Assembly: GCA_016871995.1 (NCBI GenBank)
Contig: VHBL01000003.1
Span: 60,001-92,000, forward strand
Origin: Nitrososphaerota archaeon
Lineage (GTDB): Archaea > Thermoproteota > Nitrososphaeria > Nitrososphaerales > UBA57
Direction: 5' to 3'
Length of the DNA stretch: 32,000 bases
The notes under the pieces were generated by a model. The model was not told the origin of the DNA. It worked only from the letters and a program-made list of their open reading frames with translations, and did not search any database. The position numbers were made by a program, and so were the translations under genes. Below are positions 1-27,162 of this stretch, piece after piece (the first letter of the stretch is position 1; each line of letters starts with the position of its first letter).

Positions 1-100
1 AGTAGAAGCTGTTTGGGCGAAAGCATTTCTTGACATAGGAACTCCAGCTGGGCTGAAGGCTGCCGATGATTTTCTAAAAGGGAAGATGGTTGCAGAATAG
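1..100 (+). CDS. C-terminal end of a sugar-1-phosphate nucleotidyltransferase (HddC-like; 5' part lies outside the window)
   Basis: The frame is open from the window edge to TAG 98-100 and reads ..VEAVWAKAFLDIGTPAGLKAADDFLKGKMVAE*. W..(x)..D-I-GTP..L..A is the usual C-terminal signature of NDP-sugar pyrophosphorylases. It overlaps the next gene by 11 nt and sits directly upstream of hddA-gmhA-gmhB. Confidence 0.5.
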   Translation, partial: VEAVWAKAFLDIGTPAGLKAADDFLKGKMVAE

Positions 101-2848: not shown

Positions 2849-2854
2849 ATGGCC

Positions 2855-3904
2855 CTAGAAGAACCAAACCACGAGTAGCGCGAAACCAAATACAGCATAA
2901 GAGCCTGCAAGAAGCTTAAGCATCTTTCCCTTTAGTATGAAGCAAGGCATTCTGTAGAGCGACGGAGCCAATGAAATAAATCTAAAGTATCCTGAAAAAT
3001 ATGAATATGCTGGCTGTATTATTGAACCAAGCGCTATCAAGCATAGGCTGAATGTATCTACAAGCTTTTTCCTGACTGCAAAATAGATTGATAGAACTAT
3101 CCCAAGGAATACCGACCAAACAACTATCTCATTAAGAATCAGATTTATTCCACTAATTTGGAATGTACCAGTAGCCCCAAAAAATCTATTGTAGAGAAAT
3201 GAGCCGAAGGGAATTCCCAGCTGAGGAGGCAAATCACTCCCTCTTGCGAACTCGATAAAGTGCTCTATAGTGAACCTTGATATTAGATAATAACCAAAAC
3301 CTGCAATTGTAGCTAGAATTATTGATAGGTACGGCAGGAATTTTTTCCCTTTTGCAAGTGCAAAGTATGGCAGTGCAAAAATAAAAAAGTCAGGTCTGGC
3401 AATTACTGCCAATGAAAGAACTAGAGATGCTGGAAGAAACTTGTCTTTTCGGAACAGTAGAAGACCTCCAAGCATAAGCATATAGTACAGAGGCTCGTTC
3501 ATTCCTCCGTGTATTGAAACCAGCAGAATGGGGTTGAAAGCATAAAAGATCGTTGCAATTGCAAAACCATCTCCCCTAGTCATTTTGTAGAATATTGCAA
3601 CGCTTGAAGAGAATGCGACAACGTTAATGACTTCCATAGTAACTGCAGTTATAAAGGAATTTCCTGCGGCTACCAGCGAAACTAAAAGGGGGTACAGGAA
3701 TGTGGCGTACCTGAAGCCAGAATCTACTGGAGGGTCTTTGAATGGAGCAAGCGCAATTTTGTAATAGGAGATACCGTCCGTGTTAGCTTCACTTGCAAAG
3801 TTGAATACAGTCTTCCCACTCAATAATCCAATAACATAAAAGGCAAAATTCAAGATAATAAAAGCGGCAAAGACTGTGAAACTGTTGATTCTAAACGAGG
3901 GCAA
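2855..3904 (-). CDS. polytopic membrane protein, candidate GT-C/PIG-V-like mannosyltransferase or glycan polymerase
   Basis: 349 aa with about 9-10 hydrophobic helices. The first loop, DGISYYKIALAPF...FRYATFLYPLLV, resembles the D..Y..IA..GY...aFFPlyP loop of PIG-V-type membrane glycosyltransferases. It is the last gene of the minus-strand glycan operon. Confidence 0.55.
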   Translation of the reverse strand: MPSFRINSFTVFAAFIILNFAFYVIGLLSGKTVFNFASEANTDGISYYKIALAPFKDPPVDSGFRYATFLYPLLVSLVAAGNSFITAVTMEVINVVAFSSSVAIFYKMTRGDGFAIATIFYAFNPILLVSIHGGMNEPLYYMLMLGGLLLFRKDKFLPASLVLSLAVIARPDFFIFALPYFALAKGKKFLPYLSIILATIAGFGYYLISRFTIEHFIEFARGSDLPPQLGIPFGSFLYNRFFGATGTFQISGINLILNEIVVWSVFLGIVLSIYFAVRKKLVDTFSLCLIALGSIIQPAYSYFSGYFRFISLAPSLYRMPCFILKGKMLKLLAGSYAVFGFALLVVWFF

Positions 3905-3923
3905 TTTTAATCTGAACCAAAGG

Positions 3924-5057
3924 CTACATGGTATTAGTCTTTGCTTTTATTTGATCTATGGCCTTCTCCATGTTCTTCTGAAAAGCAGCCCAAGTGTAGT
4001 TTTCTTCGACCCTTTTCCTCCCCTTTTTGCCCATCTTTTTTCTTAGATTCGCATCACTAATCAAGATTGAAATCTTTGTAGCCCATTCTTTTGGATTTTC
4101 TTCAACGACATAGCCAGTTTCTCCATCAAGAATTGTTTCAGAAGGGCCTCCAATGTTTGACGCGATAACTGGCTTACCAGAAGCCATCGCCTCAACTGGC
4201 CCGAAGCCATAATGTTCCCCAGTCGGCGTGTACAAAAATATAGAGCAATTGCGGTAAAGCTCTAGCAATTCCTTATCCGAAACGTTGGTCAGGATTTTAA
4301 CGTCGTTTCCTAATCCTTTGCTGCGAACCTTTTCTTTCAACACATCGGCATAAGACTCGAAGCCCCGTTGAACAGTACCAGCTATTATAAGGGGAACTGC
4401 GTCTCTCGATTTCTTTAGTTCGGCAAGTGCATCTAAAGCAAGTTCGAGATTTTTATTGGGCATTATCCTGTTAACGCTGAGCAGGAAACCTTCATCATTT
4501 TCACTATAAGCAAACCGCATTGTATCGACTCCGGGGTAAGCAATTATCCCGTCTCTCGAAAACGCCCTTTTTATAGCATCAAGTGTGAAACCCGAGTTGC
4601 AAGTTACAACATCACCCCCTTCGAAGCCTCGCTTTTCCGCCCTGTCTATCAATAAATGCAATATTCGCCTCAGATTATCCCCTTTTTTGACAAGGTACTT
4701 CTCAGGATGGTGGCAGTAGATTATTGAAGGTCTGTACATATGCGCAAGATAGTAGCTGGAGCTAAAGACGAAAAGGTCAGGTCTGTACTTTGAAAGACAA
4801 TATTGCATCATCTTCTTTGAAGTTTGATAAGCTGCTATGGCTCTGAACATGCCGAAGAAAGTCTTTCTACCTCCTGATGCGAAGACGGTTTCTTTCTTGA
4901 ACTCTTCAAATGACGTCTTTGGATCGTAAAACGCTGTAAAATAGGCAACATCGTGACCAACGTTCTTCAATGAGCTCCCGAGCCCAAGCACGAGTCTCTG
5001 TGCTCCCGTTCTCATCGAAATATCATAGTGTATTATTGCTATTTTCATGCAGAGCAC
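3924..5057 (-). CDS. GT4 (GT-B fold, group 1) glycosyltransferase
   Basis: 377 aa. It carries the C-terminal signature GEHYGFGPVEAMASGKPVIASNIGGPSETI (E-x7-E region). The likely true start is MKIAIIHYD, 3 codons in. Confidence 0.85.
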   Translation of the reverse strand: MLCMKIAIIHYDISMRTGAQRLVLGLGSSLKNVGHDVAYFTAFYDPKTSFEEFKKETVFASGGRKTFFGMFRAIAAYQTSKKMMQYCLSKYRPDLFVFSSSYYLAHMYRPSIIYCHHPEKYLVKKGDNLRRILHLLIDRAEKRGFEGGDVVTCNSGFTLDAIKRAFSRDGIIAYPGVDTMRFAYSENDEGFLLSVNRIMPNKNLELALDALAELKKSRDAVPLIIAGTVQRGFESYADVLKEKVRSKGLGNDVKILTNVSDKELLELYRNCSIFLYTPTGEHYGFGPVEAMASGKPVIASNIGGPSETILDGETGYVVEENPKEWATKISILISDANLRKKMGKKGRKRVEENYTWAAFQKNMEKAIDQIKAKTNTM

Positions 5058-5987
5058 TTATTCAACCGTCTGTCTGTACATGTCGATTAGTTTCTTGCCG
5101 ACCTTCCATTTATCGTGATTTTCAAGTATGAACTCTCTGTTTCTTCTCTGCTCAGCTTTCAGTTTCTTCCTATCTGCAAGCTCGGCAATCCTTTCTCCCA
5201 TGTTATTCCTGTGCCTGTAATCTATTGTTGCCAATCCGCAGGACATCGACTCCAGACACGCCTTGCTCAATGAAAACACTGTCTGCCTGTCGATATAGAC
5301 ATCATATTTCTTGAGAACTTCGTGCATATCTGAATACTTGAAAGGTCTTCCAGTAAAAACATCTACATCAAAGCCATTTCTCCGCAAACCTTCAACAATA
5401 TTGTCAGGAACCTTATCGTACCACAGGTTGAAACCTATAGCTTTGGGTTTTTCATTTTCATAGCTCTTTGGCGAGAACCTCTCTGTATCAATAGGGTTTG
5501 CCAAGTATTCAGCGTCCTCTCGAACTTGCTTAGCTAATGGCAACAGATCAGGCGTAGAAACTATCACCTTCCTTGCAGCTTTTAGATTGCCTCTAATCAT
5601 CCACCCCCAGTTGCTCAAATCCTTGCTACGCTTCATGAACTCTTTGTCTAACAATCCAAAAAGGTCAGTGCCATGGCAGTGTAATAGATGGATAGTTATT
5701 CCAAAAACTCTGAATGCAAAAGCGTCCTGCATTGCATAGTTCACATGTTTAATGCCGGTGCTCCTTAAAGCATTCCAGAAAACTCCAATAGTCTTACCCA
5801 CGATCGATCTCCTCCTTGGTAGATACCTTACTTTGATTCCATATGATTTCAGAACAAGCGAGAGTTCGTAGCCAACCCATGCAGCATCGTTCACAATCGA
5901 AACTTCGTAATTGAAAGGTCTATCAAGTGTTCTCTGCAGAGATACCACACTTTGCAGAAAAATTAACTCACTATTGTCTCTTTCCAC
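5058..5987 (-). CDS. GT-B-like glycosyltransferase (divergent)
   Basis: 309 aa. Segments VIVSTPDLLPLA and SLSKACLESMSCGLATI loosely resemble the group-1 glycosyltransferase donor-binding half. There is no gap to the downstream GT4, and it overlaps the upstream SDR gene by 17 nt. Confidence 0.5.
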   Translation of the reverse strand: MERDNSELIFLQSVVSLQRTLDRPFNYEVSIVNDAAWVGYELSLVLKSYGIKVRYLPRRRSIVGKTIGVFWNALRSTGIKHVNYAMQDAFAFRVFGITIHLLHCHGTDLFGLLDKEFMKRSKDLSNWGWMIRGNLKAARKVIVSTPDLLPLAKQVREDAEYLANPIDTERFSPKSYENEKPKAIGFNLWYDKVPDNIVEGLRRNGFDVDVFTGRPFKYSDMHEVLKKYDVYIDRQTVFSLSKACLESMSCGLATIDYRHRNNMGERIAELADRKKLKAEQRRNREFILENHDKWKVGKKLIDMYRQTVE

Positions 5988-6978
5988 TTGCAGTTTGTAG
6001 AAGATGGAGAACCTTTCTGTACCAAGCTATAGTCATTTCCAAGCCCTGTTCAAGTGTGAATTTTGGAACCCAGCCAAGAACCTCTGTAGTTAACTTAATG
6101 TCTGCAACTAGTCTAGGCAAGTCTGCAGGTCTTCCCTTCTTAAACACAATTTGAGATTTTGACGCTGCAAGTTTCTTTATCTTCTCTGCAAGTTCTTTGA
6201 TAGAAGTGTCGACACCCGTACCTATGTTGAATGTCATGCCCTTCACGCCTTCCTTTCTGCGAATGGCCTCTGCATAAGCCCTGACAGCATCTTTAACATA
6301 CGTCAAATCCCTTGTCTGCTCACCATCGTTATGAACGACAATCGGTTCGTCAAGCAAGGCTTTTGTGATGAAGGCTGGCACGACTGCTGGATAACCTCTG
6401 TACGTGTTGCTCTGGTTCTCGCCGTAAGTGTTAAAGTTTCTGATGGTACATGTGGGATATTTGTACCAAAGATGTATTACCCTGACGTGACTTTCACCAG
6501 CAAGTTTTGTCACGGCATAGGTGCTCTTTGGCTTTGTTATATGATCTACATCCATTGGAACATGAACCGGGTCGCCGTAAACTTCTGGCGATGACGCAAA
6601 AACGAAGAATGGCTGAGTTTTCGTCTTTAGTAGTTCCTGCGTCAATTTGAATACGCCGTATTCATTGAAATTAAAATATTCCCAAGGCTTGTCCATAGAC
6701 TCTGGTATTGAAACTAAAGCGGCGAAGTGTACAATAGCATCAACATTTAGGTCGTCGATACTCTTGGCAGTAAGATCCCTATAGTCCTGTTTTAGCATGG
6801 TGAACTTCTTTGCAAGTGCATTCTTGTCCTCAATAATGTTGAAAGGATCTAGCGGGAAATCTTCGGAGCGCATATAGGTGTCCAACCCTACAATGCTCTC
6901 AACTTTGTCGTCATTGAGCAAAATGTTAACAAAGTTAGAGCCGTAAAAACCCGCTGCGCCTGTTACTAAGACACGCAT
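5971..6978 (-). CDS. extended short-chain dehydrogenase: NDP-sugar 4,6-dehydratase/decarboxylase/epimerase family
   Basis: 335 aa. It has the Rossmann motif MRVLVTGAAGFYGSN, the SSPEVYGDP box, the catalytic YAVTK (YxxxK), plus FNTYGE and DGEQTRDLTYVKD, as in UDP-glucuronate decarboxylase and dTDP-glucose dehydratase relatives. Confidence 0.85.
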   Translation of the reverse strand: MRVLVTGAAGFYGSNFVNILLNDDKVESIVGLDTYMRSEDFPLDPFNIIEDKNALAKKFTMLKQDYRDLTAKSIDDLNVDAIVHFAALVSIPESMDKPWEYFNFNEYGVFKLTQELLKTKTQPFFVFASSPEVYGDPVHVPMDVDHITKPKSTYAVTKLAGESHVRVIHLWYKYPTCTIRNFNTYGENQSNTYRGYPAVVPAFITKALLDEPIVVHNDGEQTRDLTYVKDAVRAYAEAIRRKEGVKGMTFNIGTGVDTSIKELAEKIKKLAASKSQIVFKKGRPADLPRLVADIKLTTEVLGWVPKFTLEQGLEMTIAWYRKVLHLLQTASGKRQ

Positions 6979-7028
6979 TGCAAAACAATCCTTTTGACGC
7001 TCTGGTTACTTTAGCGTATTAATTTTTG

Positions 7029-7736
7029 TCATAGCACTAACCTATGGCATTCAAAGGCTTCTGCAGCTTTGACACCTACTTGCCGCCCTCTACTTTCAGC
7101 TATACGCACTATGTTTTCTGCACTTCGTGGATGTGGCTCCTTTCTTATTTGTGATGAATAAAGTTTCAACGCTTCAATCTTAGTTCTAATTTCTGAACCT
7201 ATGTCAACAAAGAAGTTTGGGTTGAATACGGCCCTGCTCCATGAAATTTCTGGTTGCTCATATGACAACACTATTTTCGGTATAGGTTTTGATTTTCCCC
7301 CGACAGGTCTGCAAGCTGTAAATGCCGCTTCTGCAACAGCAACATGATCCTGGTTGGTAGAGTGCAAGTATGGTATGCATACCATCGTTGGTTTAATCGC
7401 AGACAGAGAGACCTTCTCTCCCGATTCTATGATATCAACAAGTTTTTTCTTTGGAACTTGATCTAAACACAGATGATATTTGTCTCCAGGCAAAGCCAGA
7501 TAGTAGCTGTCAAATCTCAGAAACTTCGCTACCCTTTCAAGCTCTTTGATTCTGACTTTGGTGTCGCTCTTGCCTCCATACTGTGCAATTGAACCTACCG
7601 TCATTACAAGAACATGGACTTCCCCTCCAGCTTTTTTGACTTTTGGAATTAGGCCTCCGCATCCAAGAACCTCGTCATCGGGGTGAGGAGCTACTACCAG
7701 AAGTCTCTGCCAAGCAAGGTCTAGCGACATGGCCAA
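7029..7736 (-). CDS. PIG-L/LmbE-family N-acetylglucosaminyl de-N-acetylase
   Basis: 235 aa. It carries the diagnostic VVAPHPDDEVLGCGG zinc-site motif, followed by HxDH (NQDHVAV). Confidence 0.85.
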   Translation of the reverse strand: MAMSLDLAWQRLLVVAPHPDDEVLGCGGLIPKVKKAGGEVHVLVMTVGSIAQYGGKSDTKVRIKELERVAKFLRFDSYYLALPGDKYHLCLDQVPKKKLVDIIESGEKVSLSAIKPTMVCIPYLHSTNQDHVAVAEAAFTACRPVGGKSKPIPKIVLSYEQPEISWSRAVFNPNFFVDIGSEIRTKIEALKLYSSQIRKEPHPRSAENIVRIAESRGRQVGVKAAEAFECHRLVL

Positions 7737-8492
7737 CTACTTTTTCGCAAGTATCCCGAGAACAACCTTATGAGTAACAAACGTAGATTTCTTATTGAAA
7801 TATTCATCCAACAATGATTCAAATTTGCTCCTTGCTCTTTCGTTGAAAAGGGTGTAAGAGTTCCAGTAATTCAACACCGATTTTCTGTTCGGAAATGTTA
7901 TCGGGTTCCTGAATATCGATGTCTTGACTGCCTCAAAGTACTTCTTGAAAGTCGGCAACGCTGTGTTGGACATGAATTGAGTGTTCTCTATGAAGTTGCT
8001 CGGTAGAGGGGCAACTTTGGCGTGTAGATTGGCAAGTTCTTTGTTATTACCTTCAGTAGGGCCACATACGAATACTCTACCTCCTTTCTTCAATAATGAG
8101 TATATGTCAGAAACCGTCTTGTCTATGTCCTTTGAATAATAGATCGCAAATGATGACGCAATGGCATCGAATCTGTCTTTCCCCAACACCTCAGCTAACT
8201 CTTCCATACCGCACTTTTTGACCCTAATTGAAACCTTAGCCTTCTTTGCAGCTTCCTCCGACCCTTCCAACAGTTCCTCTGAAATATCAACCCCGAATGC
8301 TACGCCTGTCTTTCCAACAATCTTGCCATATGGAATAAGCTGCTTCCCACTACCGCAACCAATATCAAGAATCTTCTCCCCCCTCTTAAGATCTAGATTC
8401 TTCAATATCCAATCATTCACTTCATACTTACCAAATCGATCATGTGTGGTTATCCTAATGCTCAGGGCTTGTGCTTCGTTAACGTCTTTCAA
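7737..8492 (-). CDS. class I SAM-dependent methyltransferase
   Basis: 251 aa with a TTG start. It has motif I ILDIGCGSGK, plus post-I VDIS and FDAIASSFAIYY. Its stop codon abuts the PIG-L start with no spacer. Confidence 0.8.
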   Translation of the reverse strand: MKDVNEAQALSIRITTHDRFGKYEVNDWILKNLDLKRGEKILDIGCGSGKQLIPYGKIVGKTGVAFGVDISEELLEGSEEAAKKAKVSIRVKKCGMEELAEVLGKDRFDAIASSFAIYYSKDIDKTVSDIYSLLKKGGRVFVCGPTEGNNKELANLHAKVAPLPSNFIENTQFMSNTALPTFKKYFEAVKTSIFRNPITFPNRKSVLNYWNSYTLFNERARSKFESLLDEYFNKKSTFVTHKVVLGILAKK

Positions 8493-9588: not shown

Positions 9589-10227
9589 CTAGTATAGATA
9601 ATCTCTGTTCGACGCTTCTGAGATTATTGTAATCCCTGGTCTGTCTAATTCAGGCCGTCTGGATTTTAGATTACTGTCATCTCTTTGGGACACGACTACT
9701 GGATATGTACGCTTTCCAACCAGATCGTCCTTTGCAACATGGAGAGCCAGGCATAAAGCCCAGAATTGGTCATCATGCCTGTTTTCTGGGTGCTGATATT
9801 TCATTGTACCTGCTGTTGAATAGACCCGCTCCTGTTCCTGTATCTGGATTTTCAGTTCCTCGGCTCCTTTCCTTGGAAGTTTCAAGCGCTTCTGCTGGAG
9901 GAGCATAAGGAGAAATTGAACCATGTCGTGCTTGGACTGGGCTGTAAATGCCATTCCTTCAACAGGTATGTATTTTGCGTCATATTGCTCGATAACGGCT
10001 TCTCCAACAGTACTCTTGTCCAGCCCTAAATTTTCCCATTTGTACTTTTCGTAGAGTGCCTCTGTATCTTGTATAATTGTGTTGTAATCTACATGGGGCC
10101 ACTGTTTTACTCCTACTACTCGTGCTATTGACTCATCAGAATCGTCCTGCTCTTCTATTCGTATGATGACCAGAGCTGTAAAGTCTCTGCGCTTGGCTAG
10201 ATCTTGGCCTGCGTAATAATCGCTCAT
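9589..10227 (-). pseudogene. terminase large subunit, C-terminal RNase-H-like nuclease domain fragment
   Basis: It carries GQDLAKRRDFTALVI (the first acidic nuclease motif, G-x-D-x-A...D-x-T-A) and ENRHDDQFWALCLALHVA (the HDD..AL motif). Confidence 0.75.
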
Positions 10228-10375: not shown

Positions 10376-10771
10376 TCAGGCCCGGTGCCACATGAATGGG
10401 AGGATGAATTTTCTGACCGAGTCATCATTGCTGTATAGCCTGTAGAAGAAGCCTCTCTGCCCGTTCGGAGTTGAAACTAGGACGAAATCTCCTTGTGTGT
10501 TGATTAGTGTTGGCCTTAAGGCTGTGTAAATGGTTTCGTCGTTCAGTCTTATGAAATGCGCCGCTTCATCTAGGTAGACTGCTTTGACGCGATCAAAACC
10601 TCTTAGAGATTGTGCTGTACTTGGCAGGGAGAATATTTCGCAGCCATTTTTGAGGACCAGATTATCAGATTTTGTCTTTGCTATCTCTGACTCCAATATA
10701 GAAAGGTTCGGAAGGATGATAGATCGTTTCCAGAATTTTTCATACATGCACTGAATATCAATGCAAGCCAA
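10376..10771 (-). pseudogene. terminase large subunit, ATPase-domain fragment (Walker A region missing)
   Basis: It has the Walker-B-like box AVYLDEAAHF and LVSTPNG (coupling motif). No P-loop is present, and the frame closes at a TGA at 10820-10822. A third frame between 10224 and about 10390 reads IDPEEIEQEKIALGPSFCQEYECNFLNV, which is the terminase Q-E-Y-x-C-x-F box. Confidence 0.7.
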
Positions 10772-11022: not shown

Positions 11023-12024
11023 ATGGATCCAAAAGATTCATTACGGCTAAAAAAGACTGTTGCCTTTGCGGTTGTGACAGTCTTAACACTGTCCATGTTA
11101 ACCGCGGTAATACCCCCTATGAAACAAGCAGAAGCTCAGGCTTCACTACCTGCAGATCAAAGAAACTGGGAACGAGTCAATGGGAATGAATTTGGATGGA
11201 ATTACAATCCCCAAAATCAGATCAACAAGGATACTGTGAAGTCACTAGAACTAAAATGGGTCTATCCAGTACCAACTGTTACCCAGCAGAACTTGAAGCT
11301 CGGAGGTCTTGTGGTGAATGAAGGTGCAATGGCTCCTCCAATTGTAATCGACGGGACGGCATATCTTGCTCTGAACAGCAGGAACATATTGGCTCTGGAC
11401 GCAAAGACTGGGAAACTGCTTTGGACATATCAAAATGAGTTCAATAACACGGGTTTGCAAAACAGGCTTCCACTTCTTACTGAGAGAACTCATCAGCATG
11501 GAATCAATTACATCGATGGTATGATCTGGCAAAATGATTATGGATGCAAACTGACTGCTATAGATGCTAAGACAGGGAAGGTTGCAAGGCAGCACACTAA
11601 CCTCTGCTTGGAAATTCCTCTGAATAGTGCTCAAGGAATGGGAGTTCCGACAAACTCTGGATTCTATGCGGGTGCAGCAGCACATCCACCACCATATTAC
11701 AAGGCTGGTAACCTTCTGATATGGGCTATTGGAGGTTCGGCTGAGGGAACTAACGGAGGAAGATCATTCGTAGCAGGAGTAGATGCTACCACGGGTCAGA
11801 CCAAATGGCGATTTTTCTATATACCTCCATGCGGAGACCCTGCAACATGTAAACCTCTATTCCAAAGAGAGAAGCAAGAATGGGGTCAATGGCTTGTCGA
11901 TAACTGCAATAAGATATGGATACAACAGATCAAATCATGTCAGGTAGACCAAGACTTGCTGAGAAACGACTTTGGAAACATGAGGTTCAATTCTGGAGTT
12001 AGTAAGTGTGGGGTACAATGGTAG
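11023..12024 (+). CDS. exported quinoprotein-like (PQQ-repeat) beta-propeller, N-terminal part of a frameshift-split gene
   Basis: It has a signal-peptide-like N-terminus. The segment NYNPQNQINKDTVKSLELKWVYP ... PPIVIDGTAYLALNSRNILALDAKTGKLLW matches the quinoprotein dehydrogenase N-terminal pattern and the paralogue at 24790-27162. Confidence 0.8.
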   Translation: MDPKDSLRLKKTVAFAVVTVLTLSMLTAVIPPMKQAEAQASLPADQRNWERVNGNEFGWNYNPQNQINKDTVKSLELKWVYPVPTVTQQNLKLGGLVVNEGAMAPPIVIDGTAYLALNSRNILALDAKTGKLLWTYQNEFNNTGLQNRLPLLTERTHQHGINYIDGMIWQNDYGCKLTAIDAKTGKVARQHTNLCLEIPLNSAQGMGVPTNSGFYAGAAAHPPPYYKAGNLLIWAIGGSAEGTNGGRSFVAGVDATTGQTKWRFFYIPPCGDPATCKPLFQREKQEWGQWLVDNCNKIWIQQIKSCQVDQDLLRNDFGNMRFNSGVSKCGVQW

Positions 12025-13112
12025 TAGATCAGGAAACTGGCATACTCTACTTTGGAACTGCGCAAGCTGGTCCAGACTGGAATGCAACATATGCTCCAGG
12101 CTTCAGATTATTCGGAGCATCAATAATTGCAATAAATGCAAATACCGGCCAACTAGTATGGGCCCATCAGACTACTGCAAGAGACCTCTGGGATTATGAC
12201 TGCTCATGGAATACGATACTGGCTACAGCAAAAGTGAAGGGACAGAATAAGAAAGTTGTCATAAAAGGCTGCAAGAACGGAATCGTTTATGTGCTTGACG
12301 CAGCAACAGGCGAAGCTTATCACATACTTGAAGGTCCAGATATGAAGCGAACGCCATTAGCCCAACTATATGATCCAAGAAACAAGGAACAGATGACAAA
12401 GCCATGGACAAACTATCCTAGCAAAGATGCATTCTGGATGAATTGTCCTGCATTTGGATGTCTTGAATCAGACATTGCATACGACCCAACAAGGAATATG
12501 GTATACGCAGCCATCATGAACTCGCCACAATGGTCTAAGGTTGGAAATGCAGAACTTAGAGGCGTAAGCCTCGCATCGGCGCCTGCAGGAACACCTCCAT
12601 TCACACCAAGTACCAATGCGACGATCAGTGCGTGGGACCTTGACACTGGTCAGCTAAAATGGAAGTACTTTATTGATGGAAGAGGATTCAGGGGAGGAGT
12701 AATGGTCAGCGGAGGTCTGGTATGGGGTTCAGCAGTAGATGGATACAACAGGGGATTGGATGCGGATACGGGTAAAGTAGCCTACGAAGCTAACCTAGGT
12801 GTCTCTACTCTTACTCAGCCTACAATGGCAGCAGACTCTGACGGCAAGATCAAACTTTTCAGAATAGTCGGAGGACAGAGCGTCATATTCGGAGGAGCCA
12901 ACTCGTTATTCTCTCAAGCACCCGGTGCACTGATGGTATACGGACTACCAGATACGATCCCAGCGCCAAAGGAAATAATCAAAGAAGTACCTAAGGAAGT
13001 CATAAAGGAAGTAACCGTAGAAACAGTGAGCCCAGTATCCTATGCAATAGTAGGAATAGGCATCATAATAGCTGTAGTAGGAATAGTACTATCGAGAAGA
13101 AAGAAGGCGTAA
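12006..13112 (+). CDS. exported quinoprotein-like beta-propeller, C-terminal part of the frameshift-split gene (repeat stalk + TM anchor)
   Basis: It continues the paralogue alignment: VWGTMVVDQETGILYFG versus VWGQYVIDQETGIVYLG. It also has LWDYDCSWN, KNGIVYVLDAATGE, the stalk PKEIIKEVPKEVIKEVTVET and the TM + SRRKKA tail. Confidence 0.8.
   Translation: MWGTMVVDQETGILYFGTAQAGPDWNATYAPGFRLFGASIIAINANTGQLVWAHQTTARDLWDYDCSWNTILATAKVKGQNKKVVIKGCKNGIVYVLDAATGEAYHILEGPDMKRTPLAQLYDPRNKEQMTKPWTNYPSKDAFWMNCPAFGCLESDIAYDPTRNMVYAAIMNSPQWSKVGNAELRGVSLASAPAGTPPFTPSTNATISAWDLDTGQLKWKYFIDGRGFRGGVMVSGGLVWGSAVDGYNRGLDADTGKVAYEANLGVSTLTQPTMAADSDGKIKLFRIVGGQSVIFGGANSLFSQAPGALMVYGLPDTIPAPKEIIKEVPKEVIKEVTVETVSPVSYAIVGIGIIIAVVGIVLSRRKKA
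12968..13015 (+). repeat. 12-nt periodic coding repeat (4 units, KEII-KEVP-KEVI-KEVT)
   Basis: Read directly from the sequence: aag gaa ata atc / aaa gaa gta cct / aag gaa gtc ata / aag gaa gta acc. Confidence 0.8.
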
Positions 13113-17166: not shown

Positions 17167-17634
17167 ATGGAAATGTCGCAGGAACTACAAGTTGGAGACA
17201 GAGCACCTGATTTCACGCTTGAAAGTGATGTGGGGCAGAAAGTTTCTCTGAAGGATTTAAGAGGCAAACAGGTCATACTGTATTTCTATCCAAAAGACAA
17301 CACGCCAGGCTGCACAAAAGAGGCATGCAATTTTAGAGATTCTCTACAGAGCATAATCAACAAGGACACTGTAGTTTTTGGGGTGAGCAACGATAGTATT
17401 AATTCTCATAAGACTTTCAAGCAAAAATATTATCTTAACTTTCCACTTCTCAGCGACCCTGACAAGGAGGTCTCAAAAGCTTACGGAGTCTACAAACTGA
17501 AGAATTTGTATGGTATAAAGCACTGGGGCATAGAACGTTCAACTTTCCTTATCAACAAGGAAGGGAAGATCGCAAAGATATGGAGAAAGGTCAAGGTTGA
17601 CGGTCATAGGGATGAAGTTATTCAGGCTCTGTGA
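17167..17634 (+). CDS. bcp: thiol peroxidase / peroxiredoxin, Bcp (PrxQ) type
   Basis: 155 aa. It has GDRAPDFTL and the active-site box FYPKDNTPGCTKEAC with the CxxxxC arrangement. Confidence 0.9.
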   Translation: MEMSQELQVGDRAPDFTLESDVGQKVSLKDLRGKQVILYFYPKDNTPGCTKEACNFRDSLQSIINKDTVVFGVSNDSINSHKTFKQKYYLNFPLLSDPDKEVSKAYGVYKLKNLYGIKHWGIERSTFLINKEGKIAKIWRKVKVDGHRDEVIQAL

Positions 17635-19380: not shown

Positions 19381-19683
19381 TTAGTATAGATATGCGCGGA
19401 GAGGTTTTTCAGCCTCTGACATAACTTTATTCAGAGCTTCTTCAATATCGCTGGTGTAGAACCAAGTTTCTTCTCCTCCCGGGACATGCGCTTTCAGCGA
19501 TCTATCATAGACTTTCTCTGTCGCGTTGACAGTAAATTTATCACCTTTTTTTGTGACAAAAGTGAAACATTTCGAGCCTTCTCTCACGCTGCTGACCCTT
19601 ATGCCTTCATCTGAATCAAGGCTCTGCATAATTTTTCGAAGCTCACTAGCACTTCTGATAAGCTTCTCCCTGTAAGGTTTCAA
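19381..19683 (-). CDS. hypothetical 100-aa protein
   Basis: ORF with a TTG start. No motif is recognised. Confidence 0.4.
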   Translation of the reverse strand: MKPYREKLIRSASELRKIMQSLDSDEGIRVSSVREGSKCFTFVTKKGDKFTVNATEKVYDRSLKAHVPGGEETWFYTSDIEEALNKVMSEAEKPLRAYLY

Positions 19684-19850: not shown

Positions 19851-21095
19851 GTGTTGAAGCTATCTGGAATTATCGGGTATTCGCTGAAAGCGATTCAAGA
19901 GAGAAAGCTAAGGTCGACCCTGACAATCTTAATGGTTGTAATAGGAGCGGCTCTGATTACAGCGCTGAATGGTCTGGGAGGAGGTTTTAACTTCTTTATC
20001 AATGAACAATTCAGGTCTTTGGCGCCTGATGTGCTGACGATTACTCCTTCCCAGACTCTCCCCCAAGCAGGCCCTCCTATGCCGCAGGTAAGCCCGAAGG
20101 TGCCTCTGAACATCTTTACCGTAAATGCAATCCGCCCCATCTTGGGGGTAAAGGAGGTGATTCCGAGTTACCGGTCCTCCATAACTCTGATTTCTGGCGG
20201 CAAATCTATTTCTACTGCAGTAGTAGGAATAGATTCATCAAAACTTCCTTTTGTGATACCAAGTATGGAATTTGAGGATGGTGGTATTGCAATCGATAGG
20301 GATCCTACAGCGATGATCGTGGGATACAATATCGCACATCCTGCAGGCGAGTCTCAGCAGTTTGCGCAAGTTGGCAGTGTGGTTCGAGCGGAGGCTTCGA
20401 TCGTGGAACAGATCGGGAATACCCAGAAACTTGTGATCGAAAGGAGAAGTTTCGTTGTCAGAGGTGTAATCAAGGAGACGGGTAATCTGCTCTACGACAA
20501 TTCGGTTTCGATACCTCTTCAGTCAGCAAATTCCCTCTTGAAGAAATCAGGTGAATTTGACCAGATTTTTGTCGTGACAGAAAATGCAGACATGAATGCT
20601 TCTGTTGAGAGGGGAATAAGAGCCATTTACGGTAACAATATCGGAGTGACGACTCCTAGAGCAATTCAAGAAACACTCCGAAGCTTTATCACAGGCTTCA
20701 GTGTATTTTTGTTCAGCATCGGAGTAGTATCGATGCTTGTCGGATCTGTTGGCATAGTCACCACTCTGTTCACATCCGTGACAGAGAGAACCAGGGAGCT
20801 GGGCATTCTAAAAGCGATGGGTGCCACCGGCTGGGTCATCGTTCTCCTTATCTTGGCAGAATCCATGATTATAGGCGTGCTGGGAGGCACACTGGGAATT
20901 TTGTCTGGAATCTTCATGGGAGAACTCCTTACTCAAACTGCACAGTTTGGCGCGCAGAATCTTCGGCCCATCTTCACTTTCCAAGATTTAATATCTACAT
21001 GGTTACTTGCCGTAGTCCTCAGCGTAATCGCTGGGACATACCCTGCATGGCGGGCATCCAGATTGACGGCAGTAGCGGCATTAAGGAAAGAGTAA
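19851..21095 (+). CDS. ABC-transporter permease of the FtsX/MacB/LolE type
   Basis: 414 aa with a GTG start. Its topology is one N-terminal TM, a ~240-aa periplasmic-type domain, then three C-terminal TMs. It carries the ERTRELGILKAMGA box typical of FtsX-family permeases. Confidence 0.8.
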   Translation: MLKLSGIIGYSLKAIQERKLRSTLTILMVVIGAALITALNGLGGGFNFFINEQFRSLAPDVLTITPSQTLPQAGPPMPQVSPKVPLNIFTVNAIRPILGVKEVIPSYRSSITLISGGKSISTAVVGIDSSKLPFVIPSMEFEDGGIAIDRDPTAMIVGYNIAHPAGESQQFAQVGSVVRAEASIVEQIGNTQKLVIERRSFVVRGVIKETGNLLYDNSVSIPLQSANSLLKKSGEFDQIFVVTENADMNASVERGIRAIYGNNIGVTTPRAIQETLRSFITGFSVFLFSIGVVSMLVGSVGIVTTLFTSVTERTRELGILKAMGATGWVIVLLILAESMIIGVLGGTLGILSGIFMGELLTQTAQFGAQNLRPIFTFQDLISTWLLAVVLSVIAGTYPAWRASRLTAVAALRKE

Positions 21096-21180
21096 GTCTT
21101 ACTTCCACTGAAAGAGCAAAAAGCCGACAAGTAAAGTTATTACCAAGACAGAAAGGTCGAAGCCTGCAGTTCTGTTGAAA

Positions 21181-22380
21181 ATGAACCTCCGCCTCTATGA
21201 CACACTTTCAGGCAGGAAGAAGAATTTTGAACCTGTTCAAGGCAAAGTCAAAATGTTTGTCTGCGGTCCGACAGTCTACGACCATGCACATATTGGTCAT
21301 GCCAGAACGTTTGTTTTCTATGATGTCTTGGCAAGATACCTCCAGAGTCTTGGATTCACAGTAACCTTCATAATGAATCTAACAGACATTGATGAAAAGA
21401 TATTCAACCGAGCCAAAAAAGAAAGCAAATCGCACAAAGAAATTTCGAGATATTATGCAGAAGAATTCAGGCAGGCTCTAAAGTCATTGAACATTAGGAC
21501 AATCAGCAGGCTGGAAAGTGCAAGCGACTATCTTGAAAGCGCGATCCTGCAGATCAAAGGAATGCTCGCAAATAAGAACGCTTATGCTGTTAATGGTAAT
21601 GTGTATTTTGATACCTCCAGATTCTCCGACTATGGCAGGTTTTCGCACCAATCCCCGCTGGAGTTGAAGCTGAGAAGGATAGAACCATCTCCTGAAAAGA
21701 GGAACCAGGCAGACTTCCTGCTCTGGAAGAAGTTCGATGAGTATCCTTATTGGGAGAGCCCATTCGGCAGGGGAAGACCCGGATGGCATATAGAGGACAC
21801 GGCGATAGCCATCAGCAACCTTGGGCAGCAATACGATATTCATGGGGGAGGCATCGAACTTGTCTTCCCTCACCACGAAGCTGAGATAGCGCAGGCGGAA
21901 ATGCTGACTGGGAAGAAGCCTTACGTCAAATACTGGGTTCATACTGGCCTGCTGAATGTTCAAGGAAGAAAGATGTCGAAATCTCTGGGCAATTATATTC
22001 TGGTGAAGGACATTCTGGAAAGATACAGTGCAAACGTGATCAGGTTATTCTGCCTATCTACTCATTACAGAAAGGATATGGACTTCAACGAACGGACTCT
22101 AAAGAAAACTGCCAAGGAGGCAGAAATCATACTTGGGGCTTTGGCAGTTTTGCAAATAAAAAGTGGCGGTTCCAAGAATTTTGTAAGCACTATTAATGCG
22201 ATAGAGAAGAGGTTTTACAATAGTATGAATAATGACGTAAATACGGAAAAAGCTATCCAATCGCTCCTGTCTTTTGCAAAAATGATAAACAAAAACTCTG
22301 CTTTATTTAGTTTGCAAAGTCGTTTAGCAGCAAAGAGTCTTCTGGACAAGATGCTGGAAATACTTGGAATTTCGACATGA
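21181..22380 (+). CDS. cysS: cysteinyl-tRNA synthetase family enzyme, short form (CysRS or MshC-like cysteine ligase)
   Basis: It has VCGPTVYD (first Zn Cys), HIGH (HAHIGHAR), GRPGWHIEDTA, FPHHEAEIAQ, KMSKS and the DALR-2-like NNDVNTEKA. It is only 399-401 aa long. ATG 21181 is preferred over TTG 21175. Confidence 0.85.
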   Translation: MNLRLYDTLSGRKKNFEPVQGKVKMFVCGPTVYDHAHIGHARTFVFYDVLARYLQSLGFTVTFIMNLTDIDEKIFNRAKKESKSHKEISRYYAEEFRQALKSLNIRTISRLESASDYLESAILQIKGMLANKNAYAVNGNVYFDTSRFSDYGRFSHQSPLELKLRRIEPSPEKRNQADFLLWKKFDEYPYWESPFGRGRPGWHIEDTAIAISNLGQQYDIHGGGIELVFPHHEAEIAQAEMLTGKKPYVKYWVHTGLLNVQGRKMSKSLGNYILVKDILERYSANVIRLFCLSTHYRKDMDFNERTLKKTAKEAEIILGALAVLQIKSGGSKNFVSTINAIEKRFYNSMNNDVNTEKAIQSLLSFAKMINKNSALFSLQSRLAAKSLLDKMLEILGIST

Positions 22381-23129
22381 AAGTTTCAGACGAAGAGATT
22401 GACGATCTGGAGAAGAATGAAGAGGGCTTCTTCACCCTATGGAGTAAGGTTACATATCTTGATTCAGCACTCCTCTTTCTAAATAGCAAGTTCCCAGACG
22501 ATTTATTGTTCAATAGAGTTTCTACAAATTATCTGCAACATGATTACGAAGGGTTGGCGGATAAGGCTCTGGAGCATTTTCGGAAGAAGAAGATCAGACC
22601 GACATTCTTCATAGCAGAGCATCAGAGGAAACTCAAGGGAGAGCTCCTCAAAAAGAGTTTCAGGTGTATAAACAGTTTTAACATAATGAGGTTGAAAAGA
22701 TTCGTACCGTTTCCAAGCAAAGATGCAGAAGTTTCAATAGTGGATTCAGAAAGCATCGCAGCCTGGATAAACACTTACATGAAATCCTTTGACATTGATG
22801 CAAAGTTCAGACCAGAGGTCAGCAGAAGGGCAATAAAGTGCCTGAAAAGCAACAATTGCACCCTGTACATCGCAAGGATTTATGGAGAACCTGCAGGTAC
22901 ATCTTTAACATATATTGGAGAAGATGTTGCTGGATTCTATTGCATCGGCACAGTTCCAAAGTTCAGGGGAATCGGAGTAGCTTCTCTAATACTGGGACTA
23001 GCAATTAAAGATGCAGAGAAGCAGAGCCATTTGCAGTGTCTGCAGAATCTTGAGAGCGATGATGTAAGAAGATTTTACGAGGAGCGAGGGTTTGAAACAG
23101 TATTCGCGAAGAAGGTCTACCAACAATGA
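22377..23129 (+). CDS. GNAT-family N-acetyltransferase (degenerate N-terminal half + active C-terminal half)
   Basis: 250 aa. The acetyl-CoA motif A is VPKFRGIGVASLILGLAI (R-G-x-G-x-A), followed by FYEERGFE. An ATGA overlap joins it to the preceding gene. Confidence 0.8.
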   Translation: MKVSDEEIDDLEKNEEGFFTLWSKVTYLDSALLFLNSKFPDDLLFNRVSTNYLQHDYEGLADKALEHFRKKKIRPTFFIAEHQRKLKGELLKKSFRCINSFNIMRLKRFVPFPSKDAEVSIVDSESIAAWINTYMKSFDIDAKFRPEVSRRAIKCLKSNNCTLYIARIYGEPAGTSLTYIGEDVAGFYCIGTVPKFRGIGVASLILGLAIKDAEKQSHLQCLQNLESDDVRRFYEERGFETVFAKKVYQQ

Positions 23130-24789: not shown

Positions 24790-27162
24790 TTATGCCTTCT
24801 TCCTTCTGCTGAACAGCACTCCTGATATGACTACCAGAACTACTCCAATTCCTATTGCAGCATAGGATATTGGGCTGATAGTTTCCACTGTTACTTCCTT
24901 GACTATTTCTTTTGGTACTTCTTTTATGACCTCTTTAGGTACTTCTTTGATGACTTCTTTTACTATTTCCTTTGGTACTTCTTTAACAACTTCTTTGATT
25001 ACCTCTTTAGGAACTTCCTTTATGACTTCTTTTGTAATTACCTGAGGCTGTGGTAGGCGATCGGGCAGACCGTAGGCTATGAGGCTACCATCCGTGCGCG
25101 ATCCCACTCCTGCAACAGGTCCGCCTCCACCACCACCGACATGCACCAGCACTAGCATCTTGCCAGCCTTGGTAGCGCCTACGGTGGGCATGACGTTCAC
25201 TGGTATGCCGAAGAACTTTTCGTGGAGCAATTTTCCAGTTTCCGCATCGATGAACTTCAAGTTACCATCGCTCGCATACGCCATGACAAACCCTCCTGTT
25301 ACTGATATTCCTCCCCTGTGGCTTACACCCTCGATACGATATGTCCAGACTTGCTTTCCTGTATTCACATCAAGTGCATTTATGTTCGTGTTGCGTAACG
25401 TATCAATTGTAGCAACTGCTAGTCCTCCTGGAGGGACGGCACCTCCTAGTCCATTGTTCCCGTAGCGAACTACAGGTCCTTCATGACGCCATCTTGGCTG
25501 ATTGAAGCTTGCCATATACACTCGCTTTCCATCGTAAGCTAGGTCAGATTCAAGGCACTCCGTGACACAAGATACCTTGAGAACCTCTTTCTTGGGATAG
25601 ACTACCCATGGTTTGGCCATGTCTGCCTTTGTCATCCTGCAGCAAGCTTCCGGATCTGTTGGCCTGTTGTTTGCACCTACACCATAGTATACATTGAGGG
25701 CTTCCCACCCCGGATATACCCCACCCCTAACAACGTTCGGATTATCATAGACCCAGAATGGTTTTCCAGTCGCGGCATCTAATGCATATACGATGCCATT
25801 CTTGCAGCTCTTAATGTAGGCCTTCTTGCCCTGTACTTGTCCAAGGATGCCACCCCATGAACAGTCATAGTCCCATAAGTCATGAGGAATTGCGTTGAAC
25901 CACCATACCATCTTTCCAGTCCTTACGTCATGTGCAGTGAAGCCGCTACCATGCAACCCTGGTCCGTATCTATGAGTAAGGTTGGTATATGGTCCTTGAT
26001 CACCCCATCCTAGATAGACTATGCCCGTCTCCTGGTCTATGACATACTGGCCCCAGACTGGTGATATGGAAGAGGCTGAATGAACTTTTCCAAACGAAGG
26101 CGATCCTGGTACCAGATCAATCCAGTCGTTTCTCACTACGTCGGGGCTAACGTCGGTGCACTTTGTTGCCAAATATGTCGGTTCCCTGTCTCTTGCAGGA
26201 TAGTTTATTCCTTCTAGATATCTTGGATACTCGAAGTACCAACCATTACCGTTCGCTTTGCTACACTCGCTAATTGCCCAGTTGGGATCTCCCTGGGGTG
26301 ATGGAAATACCCATTCCCTATAGAGTCTCTTGGGGTTTGCTGGATCGCTCATGTCGAATGCTGTTACAAATGACCTCCCGCCGCCGCCGCTTCTGCCCGC
26401 TGGTGGGAAGAACATTATATTTCCGACGAATACGGGCGGATTAGTACCAGAAGCGGCCATGTACCCTTGGAACCCTAAGGAACCCAATAAAGCGGGCGTC
26501 TTAGTGGGATCCCCAAATTCTGCATTGGTCCCGCACAACTGTTCTGTGGTTAGAGTCCAGGCTGTCTTACCTGTTTTGGCATCGATAGCGAAGAGATTAC
26601 ACGATCCCTGTGAACTAGTTATGAGCCAGCCCTTATCTCGGTAGTAGTTTATAGCATGCACGTGGAGTCCTGGAGCAGCCTGCATCCATGGGTACGGTAC
26701 TATGTGTTTTTGCACATCAAAATAGGTTGCATAGGTGTTATTCCATAGCAACTTGCCATTCGTCGCATCAATTGCAAGGATCCTCCTATCATTCATCGCT
26801 ACATAGATTGTGCCATCAACTATTATAGGCGGTGCCATGGCACCCAGTAGTTGGGCTGCCGGGTCGAAATAGGGCTTGCCACCGGGTTTATTGTACGGGT
26901 AGACCCACTTGGGCTCCAGATATTGCACATTATCTTTGTTGATTTGGTTCTGGGGGCTGTAACTACCTCCAGTTGGTCCATAGTTTATCCATTCCCAATT
27001 ACCTGTTACTACTGAAGGAGCTGCTCCTCCAGCTGGAGGGCCTCCAGGATCGAATGCACTTACACGGGGGATCGCTGCAAGTATTGCTGGTCCGAGTAGG
27101 AGTATTGTCGTCAGCAGACTCAACATTATTAGTCGATTAGCCATGTCTCGCTTGCTAGTCAT
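24790..27162 (-). CDS. exported quinoprotein-like (PQQ-repeat) 8-bladed beta-propeller with repeat stalk and C-terminal TM anchor
   Basis: 790 aa with a signal peptide. It has YSPQNQINKDNVQYLEPKWVY, PPIIVDGTIYVAMNDRRILAIDATNGKLLW, recurring A(I/L)DA.TGK..W blade motifs and LWDYDCSWG. These are followed by 12 K-E-V-x units and VETISPISYAAIGIGVVLVVISGVLFSRRKKA. The second ATG (27144, MANRLIM..) lies about 26 nt from a TTAAATA box, so it may be a leaderless start. Confidence 0.85.
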   Translation of the reverse strand: MTSKRDMANRLIMLSLLTTILLLGPAILAAIPRVSAFDPGGPPAGGAAPSVVTGNWEWINYGPTGGSYSPQNQINKDNVQYLEPKWVYPYNKPGGKPYFDPAAQLLGAMAPPIIVDGTIYVAMNDRRILAIDATNGKLLWNNTYATYFDVQKHIVPYPWMQAAPGLHVHAINYYRDKGWLITSSQGSCNLFAIDAKTGKTAWTLTTEQLCGTNAEFGDPTKTPALLGSLGFQGYMAASGTNPPVFVGNIMFFPPAGRSGGGGRSFVTAFDMSDPANPKRLYREWVFPSPQGDPNWAISECSKANGNGWYFEYPRYLEGINYPARDREPTYLATKCTDVSPDVVRNDWIDLVPGSPSFGKVHSASSISPVWGQYVIDQETGIVYLGWGDQGPYTNLTHRYGPGLHGSGFTAHDVRTGKMVWWFNAIPHDLWDYDCSWGGILGQVQGKKAYIKSCKNGIVYALDAATGKPFWVYDNPNVVRGGVYPGWEALNVYYGVGANNRPTDPEACCRMTKADMAKPWVVYPKKEVLKVSCVTECLESDLAYDGKRVYMASFNQPRWRHEGPVVRYGNNGLGGAVPPGGLAVATIDTLRNTNINALDVNTGKQVWTYRIEGVSHRGGISVTGGFVMAYASDGNLKFIDAETGKLLHEKFFGIPVNVMPTVGATKAGKMLVLVHVGGGGGGPVAGVGSRTDGSLIAYGLPDRLPQPQVITKEVIKEVPKEVIKEVVKEVPKEIVKEVIKEVPKEVIKEVPKEIVKEVTVETISPISYAAIGIGVVLVVISGVLFSRRKKA
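24889..25032 (-). repeat. 12-nt periodic coding tandem repeat, 12 units (K-E-[VI]-[IPVT])
   Basis: It reads KEVI KEVP KEVI KEVV KEVP KEIV KEVI KEVP KEVI KEVP KEIV KEVT. The units differ by synonymous and third-position changes. Confidence 0.85.

Follow-up and report, generated by a model that had tools for sequence, protein, structure and literature searches.

What is a cysteinyl-tRNA synthetase (CysRS) for when it lacks the domain that reads the anticodon, and which proteins go with it? The question is raised by a cysS gene (21181-22380, forward strand) in a 32,000-nucleotide stretch from a Nitrososphaerota archaeon (GenBank assembly GCA_016871995.1, contig VHBL01000003.1, positions 60,001 to 92,000), which we call the window and whose own numbering we use throughout. 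An earlier reading of these letters (the original prediction) had singled out the enzyme because it is short, carries an Asp in place of a zinc-ligand Cys and overlaps the gene of a GNAT-family acetyltransferase, and had asked whether it is a housekeeping synthetase or belongs to a thiol-forming pair like MshC and MshD of mycothiol biosynthesis. We find that this open reading frame (ORF) encodes a member of a separate subfamily of archaeal CysRS. New here is the combination of a CysRS that has lost its anticodon-binding domain with an orphan small protein, for which no structural relatives were detected, and with a GNAT. The most diagnostic component of this module is the gene for the small protein, a partner of about 100 residues that the original prediction overlooked.

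The truncated synthetase and its catalytic core

In E. coli CysRS, a C-terminal alpha/beta domain of about 65 residues reads the GCA anticodon, which is one of the two major identity elements of tRNA-Cys, and CysRS is treated as a single-chain enzyme. The window enzyme has the catalytic Rossmann/CP region, the stem-contact fold and the helical DALR_2 bundle, and the anticodon-binding alpha/beta domain is absent from its C-terminus. Pfam finds PF01406 (tRNA-synt_1e) and PF09190 (DALR_2) in it and does not find PF23493 (CysS_C), which is present in one full-length relative. In the alignment, the short proteins all end right after a conserved ILG(I/L) helix, whereas the full-length ones run on into the alpha/beta domain. 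The distance from the KMSKS motif to the C-terminus is exactly 136 residues in 11 sequence clusters of the window clade (57-100% identity), a constancy which indicates that the truncation is conserved and is no assembly artefact; the missing domain noted by the original prediction is real. Searches by tblastn with five canonical C-terminal domains as queries found no free-standing anticodon-binding domain anywhere in the window, and a literature search found no description of a CysRS without this domain.

The ATG at 21181 is preferred as the start of the gene, both by the gene calls in databases and by the alignment with homologues. The resulting protein of 399 aa is 100% identical to a database entry (P0001) annotated 'MAG: cysteine--tRNA ligase' (MAG, metagenome-assembled genome); a start at the TTG at 21175 would give 401 aa, and residue numbers counted from there are 2 higher. 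Over the shared core the enzyme is 43-57% identical to full-length archaeal CysRS. Its landmarks, all on the forward strand, are the TGC codon for the Cys equivalent to the E. coli zinc ligand Cys28 (21262-21264, within VCGPTVYD), HIGH (21289-21300), the GAC codon for the Asp of WHIED (21796-21798), HHEAE within FPHHEAEIAQ (21871-21885, with the codons for the equivalents of E. coli His234 and Glu238 at 21871-21873 and 21883-21885) and KMSKS (21970-21984). The ORF, these motifs, the ATGA overlap with the next gene and the 250-aa length of the GNAT are as the original prediction had described them. In the HMMER alignment to the E. coli enzyme (1LI5), the zinc ligands Cys, His and Glu are identical, and the fourth, at the position of Cys209, is Asp. 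Judged by its sequence, the short CysRS carries every motif needed for zinc binding (Cys/Asp/His/Glu), for cysteine selection and for the formation of cysteinyl adenylate (Cys-AMP).

The Asp had been taken as a notable substitution, and this did not survive comparison. GWHIED is present in 120 of the 120 best database matches to the window CysRS, and its carriers include full-length enzymes of 465-475 aa from Korarchaeum cryptofilum, Bathyarchaeia and Nitrososphaerales. A scan for the peptide patterns PGWHIEDT and [FY]PHHEAEI, covering one genome per species, listed at least 600 matches, with CysRS of Methanobacteriales, Methanotrichales, Thermoplasmata, Desulfurococcales, DPANN and several bacteria of the candidate phyla radiation (CPR). 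Found in all of the best matches and in many archaea and CPR bacteria, the Asp says nothing about a change of function; its occurrence in full-length archaeal and CPR-bacterial enzymes rules it out as a marker and removes a false lead, since an Asp at the zinc site is normal for these CysRS. Within the lineage, both the Asp and the short C-terminus are conserved. Six CPR-labelled contigs (Saccharibacteria, Nealsonbacteria, Wildermuthbacteria and Yanofskybacteria) carry an archaeal-type WHIED CysRS with 41-43% identity to the window enzyme.

The catalytic core of the short enzymes is under CysRS-like constraint. Across 159 full-length enzymes, 93 alignment columns are at least 95% invariant; the window enzyme keeps 87 of these, and the median in the short family is 85. 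The corresponding numbers are 80 for E. coli CysRS and 70 for M. smegmatis MshC (3C8Z, its sequence taken from a printed alignment). In the short family 73 of the 93 columns are at least 90% conserved, and 18 others mostly show conservative swaps. The catalytic motifs are essentially those of full-length archaeal CysRS, except in the outlier L089, to which we return below, and in L067 (5007-6251). We excluded the latter locus from the conservation statistics because its cysS frame holds X and a duplicated 'WHIECSAMSLALLGERFDIH' segment, a stretch that looks masked or chimeric in the public assembly. The NCBIfam model for cysS, TIGR00435, aligns over profile positions 1-392 of 466 and scores 407.3 bits, which passes its equivalog cut-off of 340. 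In a neighbour-joining tree of the shared core, midpoint-rooted and without support values, all short enzymes fall on one side, which suggests that they have a single origin.

Loss of the same domain is known from MshC, a CysRS-derived enzyme of about 410 aa without an anticodon-binding domain, after which the GNAT MshD acts in the mycothiol pathway. It is conceivable that a pathway of this kind evolved independently from an archaeal CysRS. The short enzyme would then form Cys-AMP and transfer Cys to a small-molecule amine, the partner would help to bind that acceptor, the GNAT would N-acetylate the product to give a low-molecular-weight thiol, and a separate CysRS would serve translation. We consider this explanation possible, though rather doubtful. 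The architecture fits: at 399 aa the window enzyme has the length and the missing domain of MshC, and the MshC model TIGR03447 aligns over positions 16-400 of 411. The score, however, is 264 bits against a cut-off of 485.1, and the residues argue against the MshC membership that the original prediction had raised. At a set of MshC-specific departures from CysRS (H to Q in DIHGGG; E to S, I to A and Q to H in PHHExEIAQ; R165G; W251Y) the window enzyme always has the CysRS residue, so that it reads DIHGGG and PHHEAEIAQAE where MshC-type residues would give DIQGGG and PHHE(Y/F)(S/T)AAHAE. More generally, where an invariant is kept by E. coli CysRS and changed in MshC, the window enzyme retains the CysRS residue at most positions, and only 6 of the 93 invariants are changed in it, none of them in the manner associated with the MshC acceptor.

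Charge also speaks against an MshC-like turn away from tRNA. Over the shared region the net charge is +14 in the window enzyme, with a median of +6 in the short family and of -5 in full-length enzymes; E. coli CysRS has -13 and MshC -21, the MshC value being confounded by actinobacterial composition. For the helical bundle the medians are +2 (short) and -4 (full-length). Positive charge is gained, not lost, from long to short enzymes within the archaea, which is the opposite of what a loss of RNA binding would predict.

The partner protein and the acetyltransferase

The partner gene lies on the reverse strand at 19381-19683 (stop included), begins with a TTG at 19683 and encodes 100 aa with the motifs LDxDEGIR, PGGxExW and, at the C-terminus, PLxA(Y/W)xY. 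E6, D25, R29, F42 and the C-terminal Y100 are invariant in the family, whose last residue is always Tyr. A homologue of about 100 aa occurs within 2 kb of every short cysS examined (20 of 20) and at none of 69 full-length loci (Fisher p = 2.5e-20); phylogenetically the tallied loci are no independent cases, but several deep lineages are represented among them, and their other flanking genes differ. Two further lineages were confirmed after this tally, which brings the short loci with a partner to 22. Searching from the partner side led back to cysS in four loci, a fifth contig being too short to tell. The partner gene is usually divergent from cysS and immediately upstream of it (ten loci); in three loci of Bathyarchaeia it is convergent and downstream, and the linkage therefore extends to a group in which the GNAT is absent. 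An FtsX/MacB-type ABC permease (19851-21095, forward strand; PF12704 and PF02687, with NCBIfam MacB/LolCE-like models below their cut-offs) separates partner and cysS in the window. It intervenes only in the window's closest relatives (three loci) and stands outside the conserved module.

One account of the locus would be an ordinary lineage-specific minimal CysRS, which works alone through U73 and the acceptor stem and has the partner and the GNAT as unrelated neighbours. Such an enzyme would have the intact catalytic core and the passing cysS score that we observe, and its short length would be common to all clade relatives, as it is. Moreover, U73 alone confers cysteine identity on minihelices (review PMC9976931), which makes a CysRS without the domain biochemically plausible. 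The perfect co-occurrence of the partner with the loss of the domain, among differing flanks, nevertheless makes an unrelated gene very unlikely, and the junction with the GNAT still overlaps or nearly abuts where the GNATs are only 23-32% identical. We hold this account to be improbable.

The partner itself belongs to no Pfam or NCBIfam family and is annotated in databases only as 'hypothetical protein'. An exhaustive HMMER search of 1.84 billion (1.84e9) representatives returned a family of 42 members, which are free-standing and 60-127 aa long except for one partial match of 3,485 aa; no fusion of the partner to a synthetase was found among these sequences. An AlphaFold (AF2) model built from a diverse alignment of 35 sequences (pLDDT 92.6, pTM 0.82) predicts a beta-alpha-beta4-alpha-beta topology, and by this model the partner is a real folded protein. 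Foldseek searches of the PDB and of predicted viral structures gave no significant match. Single-stranded nucleic-acid-binding folds of the PC4/Sub1/Whirly type recur among the non-significant matches, which we take as a lead only. The family is mostly basic (median pI 8.9), and conserved aromatic and basic residues (F40, F42, Y/F50, W74, K45 and K/R57) are placed on the beta-sheet in the model.

Three further observations concern the partner. Part of it, residues 21-61, weakly matches (E = 3.5e-5) phrog_9091, a family of phage proteins about 106 aa long whose function is unknown. The family arCOG08680 (Nmar_0968) was considered as a partner equivalent and rejected, being multi-copy and not adjoining cysS in other ammonia-oxidising archaea (AOA). 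An AhpC/TSA peroxiredoxin gene (17167-17634, forward strand) and two small unannotated ORFs are kept upstream of the partner gene in the window lineage (two loci).

The third gene (22377-23129, forward strand) encodes the 250-aa GNAT, with matches to PF00583 (30.3 bits against a cut-off of 20.7), PF13508 and PF13480. Its motif A, R-G-I-G-V-A (22965-22982, forward strand), has the form Q/R-x-x-G-x-G/A of the acetyl-CoA pyrophosphate-binding loop, and R197 is invariant and G200 nearly invariant in the family alignment. The original prediction had described this protein as a two-half GNAT. The C-terminal domain (residues ~147-240) is clear. The N-terminal half, whose 120 residues have no Pfam match, has conserved features of its own, ExNExx(F/W)xSx(W/F) and (L/F)FN(R/H), and the GNAT profile aligns residues 58/80-247 to the tandem-GNAT structures 3frm and 6wqb, which are of the same size; by this indirect route the N-terminal half is probably a second, degenerate GNAT-like domain.

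In the window, the stop of cysS overlaps the start of the GNAT gene in an ATGA (22377-22380, forward strand), an arrangement for translational coupling. The same 4-nt overlap occurs in three other loci, among relatives with different flanking genes and with CysRS identities as low as 63%. In five more loci the junction ranges from -17 to +6 nt, and in two further lineages the gaps are 20-60 nt. Distant GNATs, 23-32% identical over their full length, lie directly downstream of a short cysS in Nitrosopumilales, Nitrososphaerales, other Nitrososphaerota, a 'Thermoprotei' MAG and an unclassified archaeon, and a GNAT stands directly 3' of the short cysS in all Nitrososphaerota-type loci. The original prediction had counted a lack of conservation here among the signs of an ordinary enzyme; the adjacency is conserved over deep divergence. 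The module has a hierarchy: short CysRS and partner always occur together, the GNAT is usually present in Nitrososphaerota, and of the two companions of cysS the GNAT is the more loosely attached. A related GNAT subfamily, 32-34% identical to the window GNAT, occurs at four loci in the metagenomes Ga0315312 and Ga0315314; in two of them it lies just downstream of a 177-aa thioredoxin-fold redoxin.

A tight, conserved linkage to a GNAT of the acetyl-CoA type is what the MshC/MshD-like explanation would lead one to expect, and redoxins are a further point in its favour, as related GNATs adjoin thioredoxin-fold redoxins and the AhpC peroxiredoxin is kept near the module in the window lineage. Against it stand the Bathyarchaeal modules, which have no GNAT, and the GNAT's own affinities. 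The best solved structures for its profile are YpeA, 3frm, 6wqb, Naa50/30/60 and RimI; MshD is not among the best 60 of 101 matches (E<=1) in a search of all PDB sequences, and the GNAT has no NCBIfam match, so that the MshD-like GNAT envisaged in the original prediction found no backing.

The same holds for the remaining pathway genes. The GT4 (3924-5057) and PIG-L (7029-7736) genes that had been linked to the MshA and MshB families are indeed present, but their scores fall far below the cut-offs of the thiol models (GT4: 77 against 462 for MshA and 59 against 274 for BshA; PIG-L: 61 against 182.5 for BshB (BshB1), with no match at MshB level). Both lie within a sugar-nucleotide and glycosylation cluster (90-8492) that comprises a GHMP kinase, a GmhA-like SIS protein, a GmhB-like HAD phosphatase, GT2, GT4, an NAD-dependent epimerase/dehydratase, the PIG-L deacetylase and an S-adenosylmethionine (SAM)-dependent methyltransferase, and that resembles a heptose-type pathway. 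With such scores and in this setting, they lend no independent support to a thiol pathway. MshA, MshB and MshD were not found together within the window, and a literature search gave no link of mycothiol genes to Thaumarchaeota. The MshC/MshD-like idea is supported by no membership test specific to the MshC or MshD families; its mechanism is still compatible with the data, and it is on this footing that we keep it as a doubtful alternative.

Weighing the function of the module

We propose that the module is a heteromeric CysRS, with the small protein making up in trans for the loss of the anticodon-binding domain, and that it serves as a working CysRS in lineages like that of the window. We put the chances of this proposal at about even. 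The partner would bind the truncated CysRS, probably at its C-terminal helical bundle, and would supply the tRNA (anticodon-arm) binding that formerly came from the lost domain, so that the pair could still charge tRNA-Cys, with U73 and the acceptor end being read by the catalytic core. The GNAT would be a facultative third component, which may acetylate the enzyme's cysteinyl product at its alpha-amino group or else some component of the complex. Where another CysRS was later acquired, as may have happened in the mainstream ammonia oxidisers, the module would have become redundant and could then have been lost (N. maritimus, N. franklandianus), weakly expressed (N. viennensis cysS-1) or left to degenerate (L089).

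The cultured relatives provide the main grounds for thinking about redundancy. In N. viennensis, the GNAT gene NVIE_003270 adjoins NVIE_003280, named 'cysS-1', between a myo-inositol-1-phosphate synthase gene and a radical-SAM gene (NVIE_003260-003290; PMC7785015 supplement), and no gene is annotated between cysS-1 and its neighbours. Among three AOA compared, NVIE_003280 and the GNAT fall into protein families found in N. viennensis only, and a separate CysS family, FAM000731, has members in N. viennensis, N. franklandianus (NFRAN_0108) and N. maritimus (Nmar_0967), none of them next to a GNAT (PMC12448741). From the GNAT adjacency and the separate clustering we infer that cysS-1 belongs to the short subfamily. 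The other two cultured AOA are without the module. The core CysS of AOA is not among the matches listed for the two WHIED-type peptide patterns, and so it may be a different enzyme, for example one of WHIEC type. A radical-SAM gene also follows the GNAT in two other loci.

Only one full-length clade carries a Nitrososphaerota label (the P0036/P0086 clade, five loci labelled 'Nitrososphaerales archaeon'). Its CysRS has KMAKS for KMSKS and an AEIAQME motif. It resembles the CysRS of Methanobacterium (59-60% identity) more than it does other TACK enzymes, a pattern suggestive of horizontal transfer. The GC content of the contigs is 0.39, a four-subunit pyruvate:ferredoxin oxidoreductase is encoded nearby, and their composition is unlike that of the short-type organism of the same metagenome. 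A pair of short and full-length cysS loci from one metagenome (L103 and L109) was accordingly rejected as one genome: GC content is 0.46 versus 0.39 and the tetranucleotide correlation r = 0.69, so these are different organisms. The flanks of the full-length clade differ from those of Nmar_0967 and NFRAN_0108 and give no information on identity with the AOA core CysS. Proximity of accessions among short and long NCBI CysRS yielded no same-genome pair, many entries having no accession.

Several points weigh against the heteromeric reading. N. viennensis has cysS-1 besides its core CysS, which means that the module can be accessory, and NVIE_003270 and NVIE_003280 are expressed about 3 log2 units (~8-fold) below trpS, pheS, proS and aspS (PMC7785015 supplement). 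Short enzymes are 40-50% identical to one another, as against 53-60% between full-length enzymes across phyla, which indicates that the short family evolves faster. The short homologue in L089 (2712-3893; GCA_033581295.1, contig JAVQTN010000001.1) has a degraded active site, with SWHMQD and with PHHRSY, in which the Glu ligand is replaced by Tyr. With 65 of the 93 invariants it keeps fewer than MshC, yet the partner and the GNAT are retained alongside; it belongs to the module as a member that is either in decay or put to a new use and, as a sign that the module is not essential there, a second indication of dispensability. It speaks for the heteromeric reading that a full-length CysRS attributable to the window lineage was not found among the best matches; no whole-genome search was made, however, and the organism may have a second CysRS or a SepRS/SepCysS route. 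A pure tRNA-charging model leaves the role of the GNAT unexplained, and neither cysS nor partner occurs in the available flanks of the four related GNATs from Ga0315312 and Ga0315314 (5 kb upstream in one of them). As for the partner, its association with CysRS and its RNA binding are putative, and at the level of sequence it is not a split-off anticodon-binding domain: hhalign gives a probability of 0.1%, the fold matches no CysRS chain, and the 1.84 billion sequences searched hold no fusions.

Some of these points would be natural under the MshC/MshD-like explanation, to which the faster evolution of the short family, the degenerate L089 member and an accessory, weakly expressed, GNAT-linked copy that adjoins a myo-inositol-1-phosphate synthase gene in N. 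viennensis all lend weight. They could also be read as signs of a redundant relic, with the working CysRS encoded elsewhere and the window copy having little or no function. Low expression of cysS-1 in N. viennensis, the degenerate L089 homologue and the patchy distribution in AOA would agree with this. The window copy, however, keeps 87 of the 93 invariants and all motifs, the C-terminal end point is identical in 11 clusters down to 57% identity, and the three-gene synteny extends across deep lineages; together these indicate purifying selection, and we give the relic reading only a very slim chance. Of the interpretation in the original prediction, then, a part is supported: of the two possibilities it raised, an ordinary stand-alone housekeeping CysRS does not fit, given the conserved truncation, the coupling to the GNAT and the presence of cysS-1 besides a core CysS in N. 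viennensis.

A bolder reading is conceivable too. The three genes might constitute an independently evolved archaeal machine for an N-acetylcysteinyl product, in which a CysRS whose active site is still of the tRNA type works with a small subunit of a fold not seen before that presents the acceptor (tRNA-Cys or another molecule), and the GNAT acetylates the cysteinyl amine. We think this unlikely, but if it were true, the product could be N-acetyl-Cys-tRNA, serving as an activated donor, or else a new thaumarchaeal thiol of low molecular weight, and such a role outside translation would be new for any CysRS.

The rest of the window adds context of other kinds. There is no tRNA-Cys near the module, Rfam gave no match in the window, and models of defence systems gave none for the trio of cysS, partner and GNAT. 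Two small neighbouring ORFs on the reverse strand (9589-10227 and 10376-10771) both have matches among the families of viral large terminases (Terminase_6C nuclease domain, E = 2.4e-11; phrog_5909, 1.5e-18; phrog_7579, 2.5e-11). They look like the two pieces of a terminase gene that has been split and degraded, and hence like what is left of a provirus in a thaumarchaeal chromosome. A pyrroloquinoline quinone (PQQ) beta-propeller dehydrogenase is split into overlapping ORFs at 11023-12024 and 12006-13112 on the forward strand (PF01011 positions 1-215 and 230-336), which points to a frameshift, a pseudogene or a fault of the assembly. The window also has an intact PQQ dehydrogenase of 790 aa, at 24790-27162 on the reverse strand.

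Comparison with known systems

These data describe a natural, widely conserved lineage of CysRS that has no anticodon domain and that, in strict association with this loss, is accompanied by an unrelated small protein. Should the partner indeed replace the domain in trans, this would be, to our knowledge, the first heteromeric CysRS and a non-homologous replacement of a synthetase's tRNA-recognition module, which would be relevant to the evolution of tRNA identity and to the engineering of orthogonal synthetase/tRNA pairs. If the product is instead a cysteinyl conjugate, the module would point to a low-molecular-weight thiol of Thaumarchaeota, which abound in soils, in lakes and in the oceans. 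In both cases a concrete, testable context is gained for an orphan protein family and for a GNAT subfamily.

With canonical CysRS (TIGR00435; E. coli 1LI5 and 1U0B; archaeal 8QHP) the window enzyme shares the Rossmann fold, HIGH and KMSKS, the zinc site, the cysteine-binding motifs, the stem-contact fold and DALR_2. It differs in having no PF23493, in being more basic, and in being accompanied always by the partner of about 100 aa and usually by a tightly linked GNAT. The closest parallel in a cultured organism is the NVIE_003280/NVIE_003270 pair of N. viennensis, a cysS adjoining a GNAT in the same phylum and in a family apart from the AOA core CysS, with the difference that cysS-1 coexists with that second, core CysS.

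MshC (TIGR03447; M. smegmatis 3C8Z and 8HFM) resembles the window enzyme in its similar length and in its lack of the anticodon-binding domain. The two part company in the invariants retained (87 of 93 in the window enzyme versus 70 of 93), in charge (+14 versus -21) and at the zinc site, where the window has Asp and MshC has Cys. MshD is a two-domain GNAT of about 315 aa with the acetyl-CoA motif in its C-terminal domain only, and the window GNAT may share this layout. At 250 aa it is shorter, and no specific sequence relation between the two was detected.

Synthetases that work with a separate tRNA-binding polypeptide are known for other amino acids, as in yeast Arc1p with MetRS and GluRS, Aquifex Trbp111, the alpha2-beta2 GlyRS and the split AlaRS of Nanoarchaeum; we know of no such split arrangement for CysRS. 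The likeness to the Arc1p/Trbp111 type is one of concept, in that a separate protein would supply a missing tRNA-binding surface, as we propose here. The partner is not of the OB-fold/EMAPII type and has no Pfam, NCBIfam or significant fold match, which lowers the case for membership in the Arc1p/Trbp111 family but not the case that the partner works like its members.

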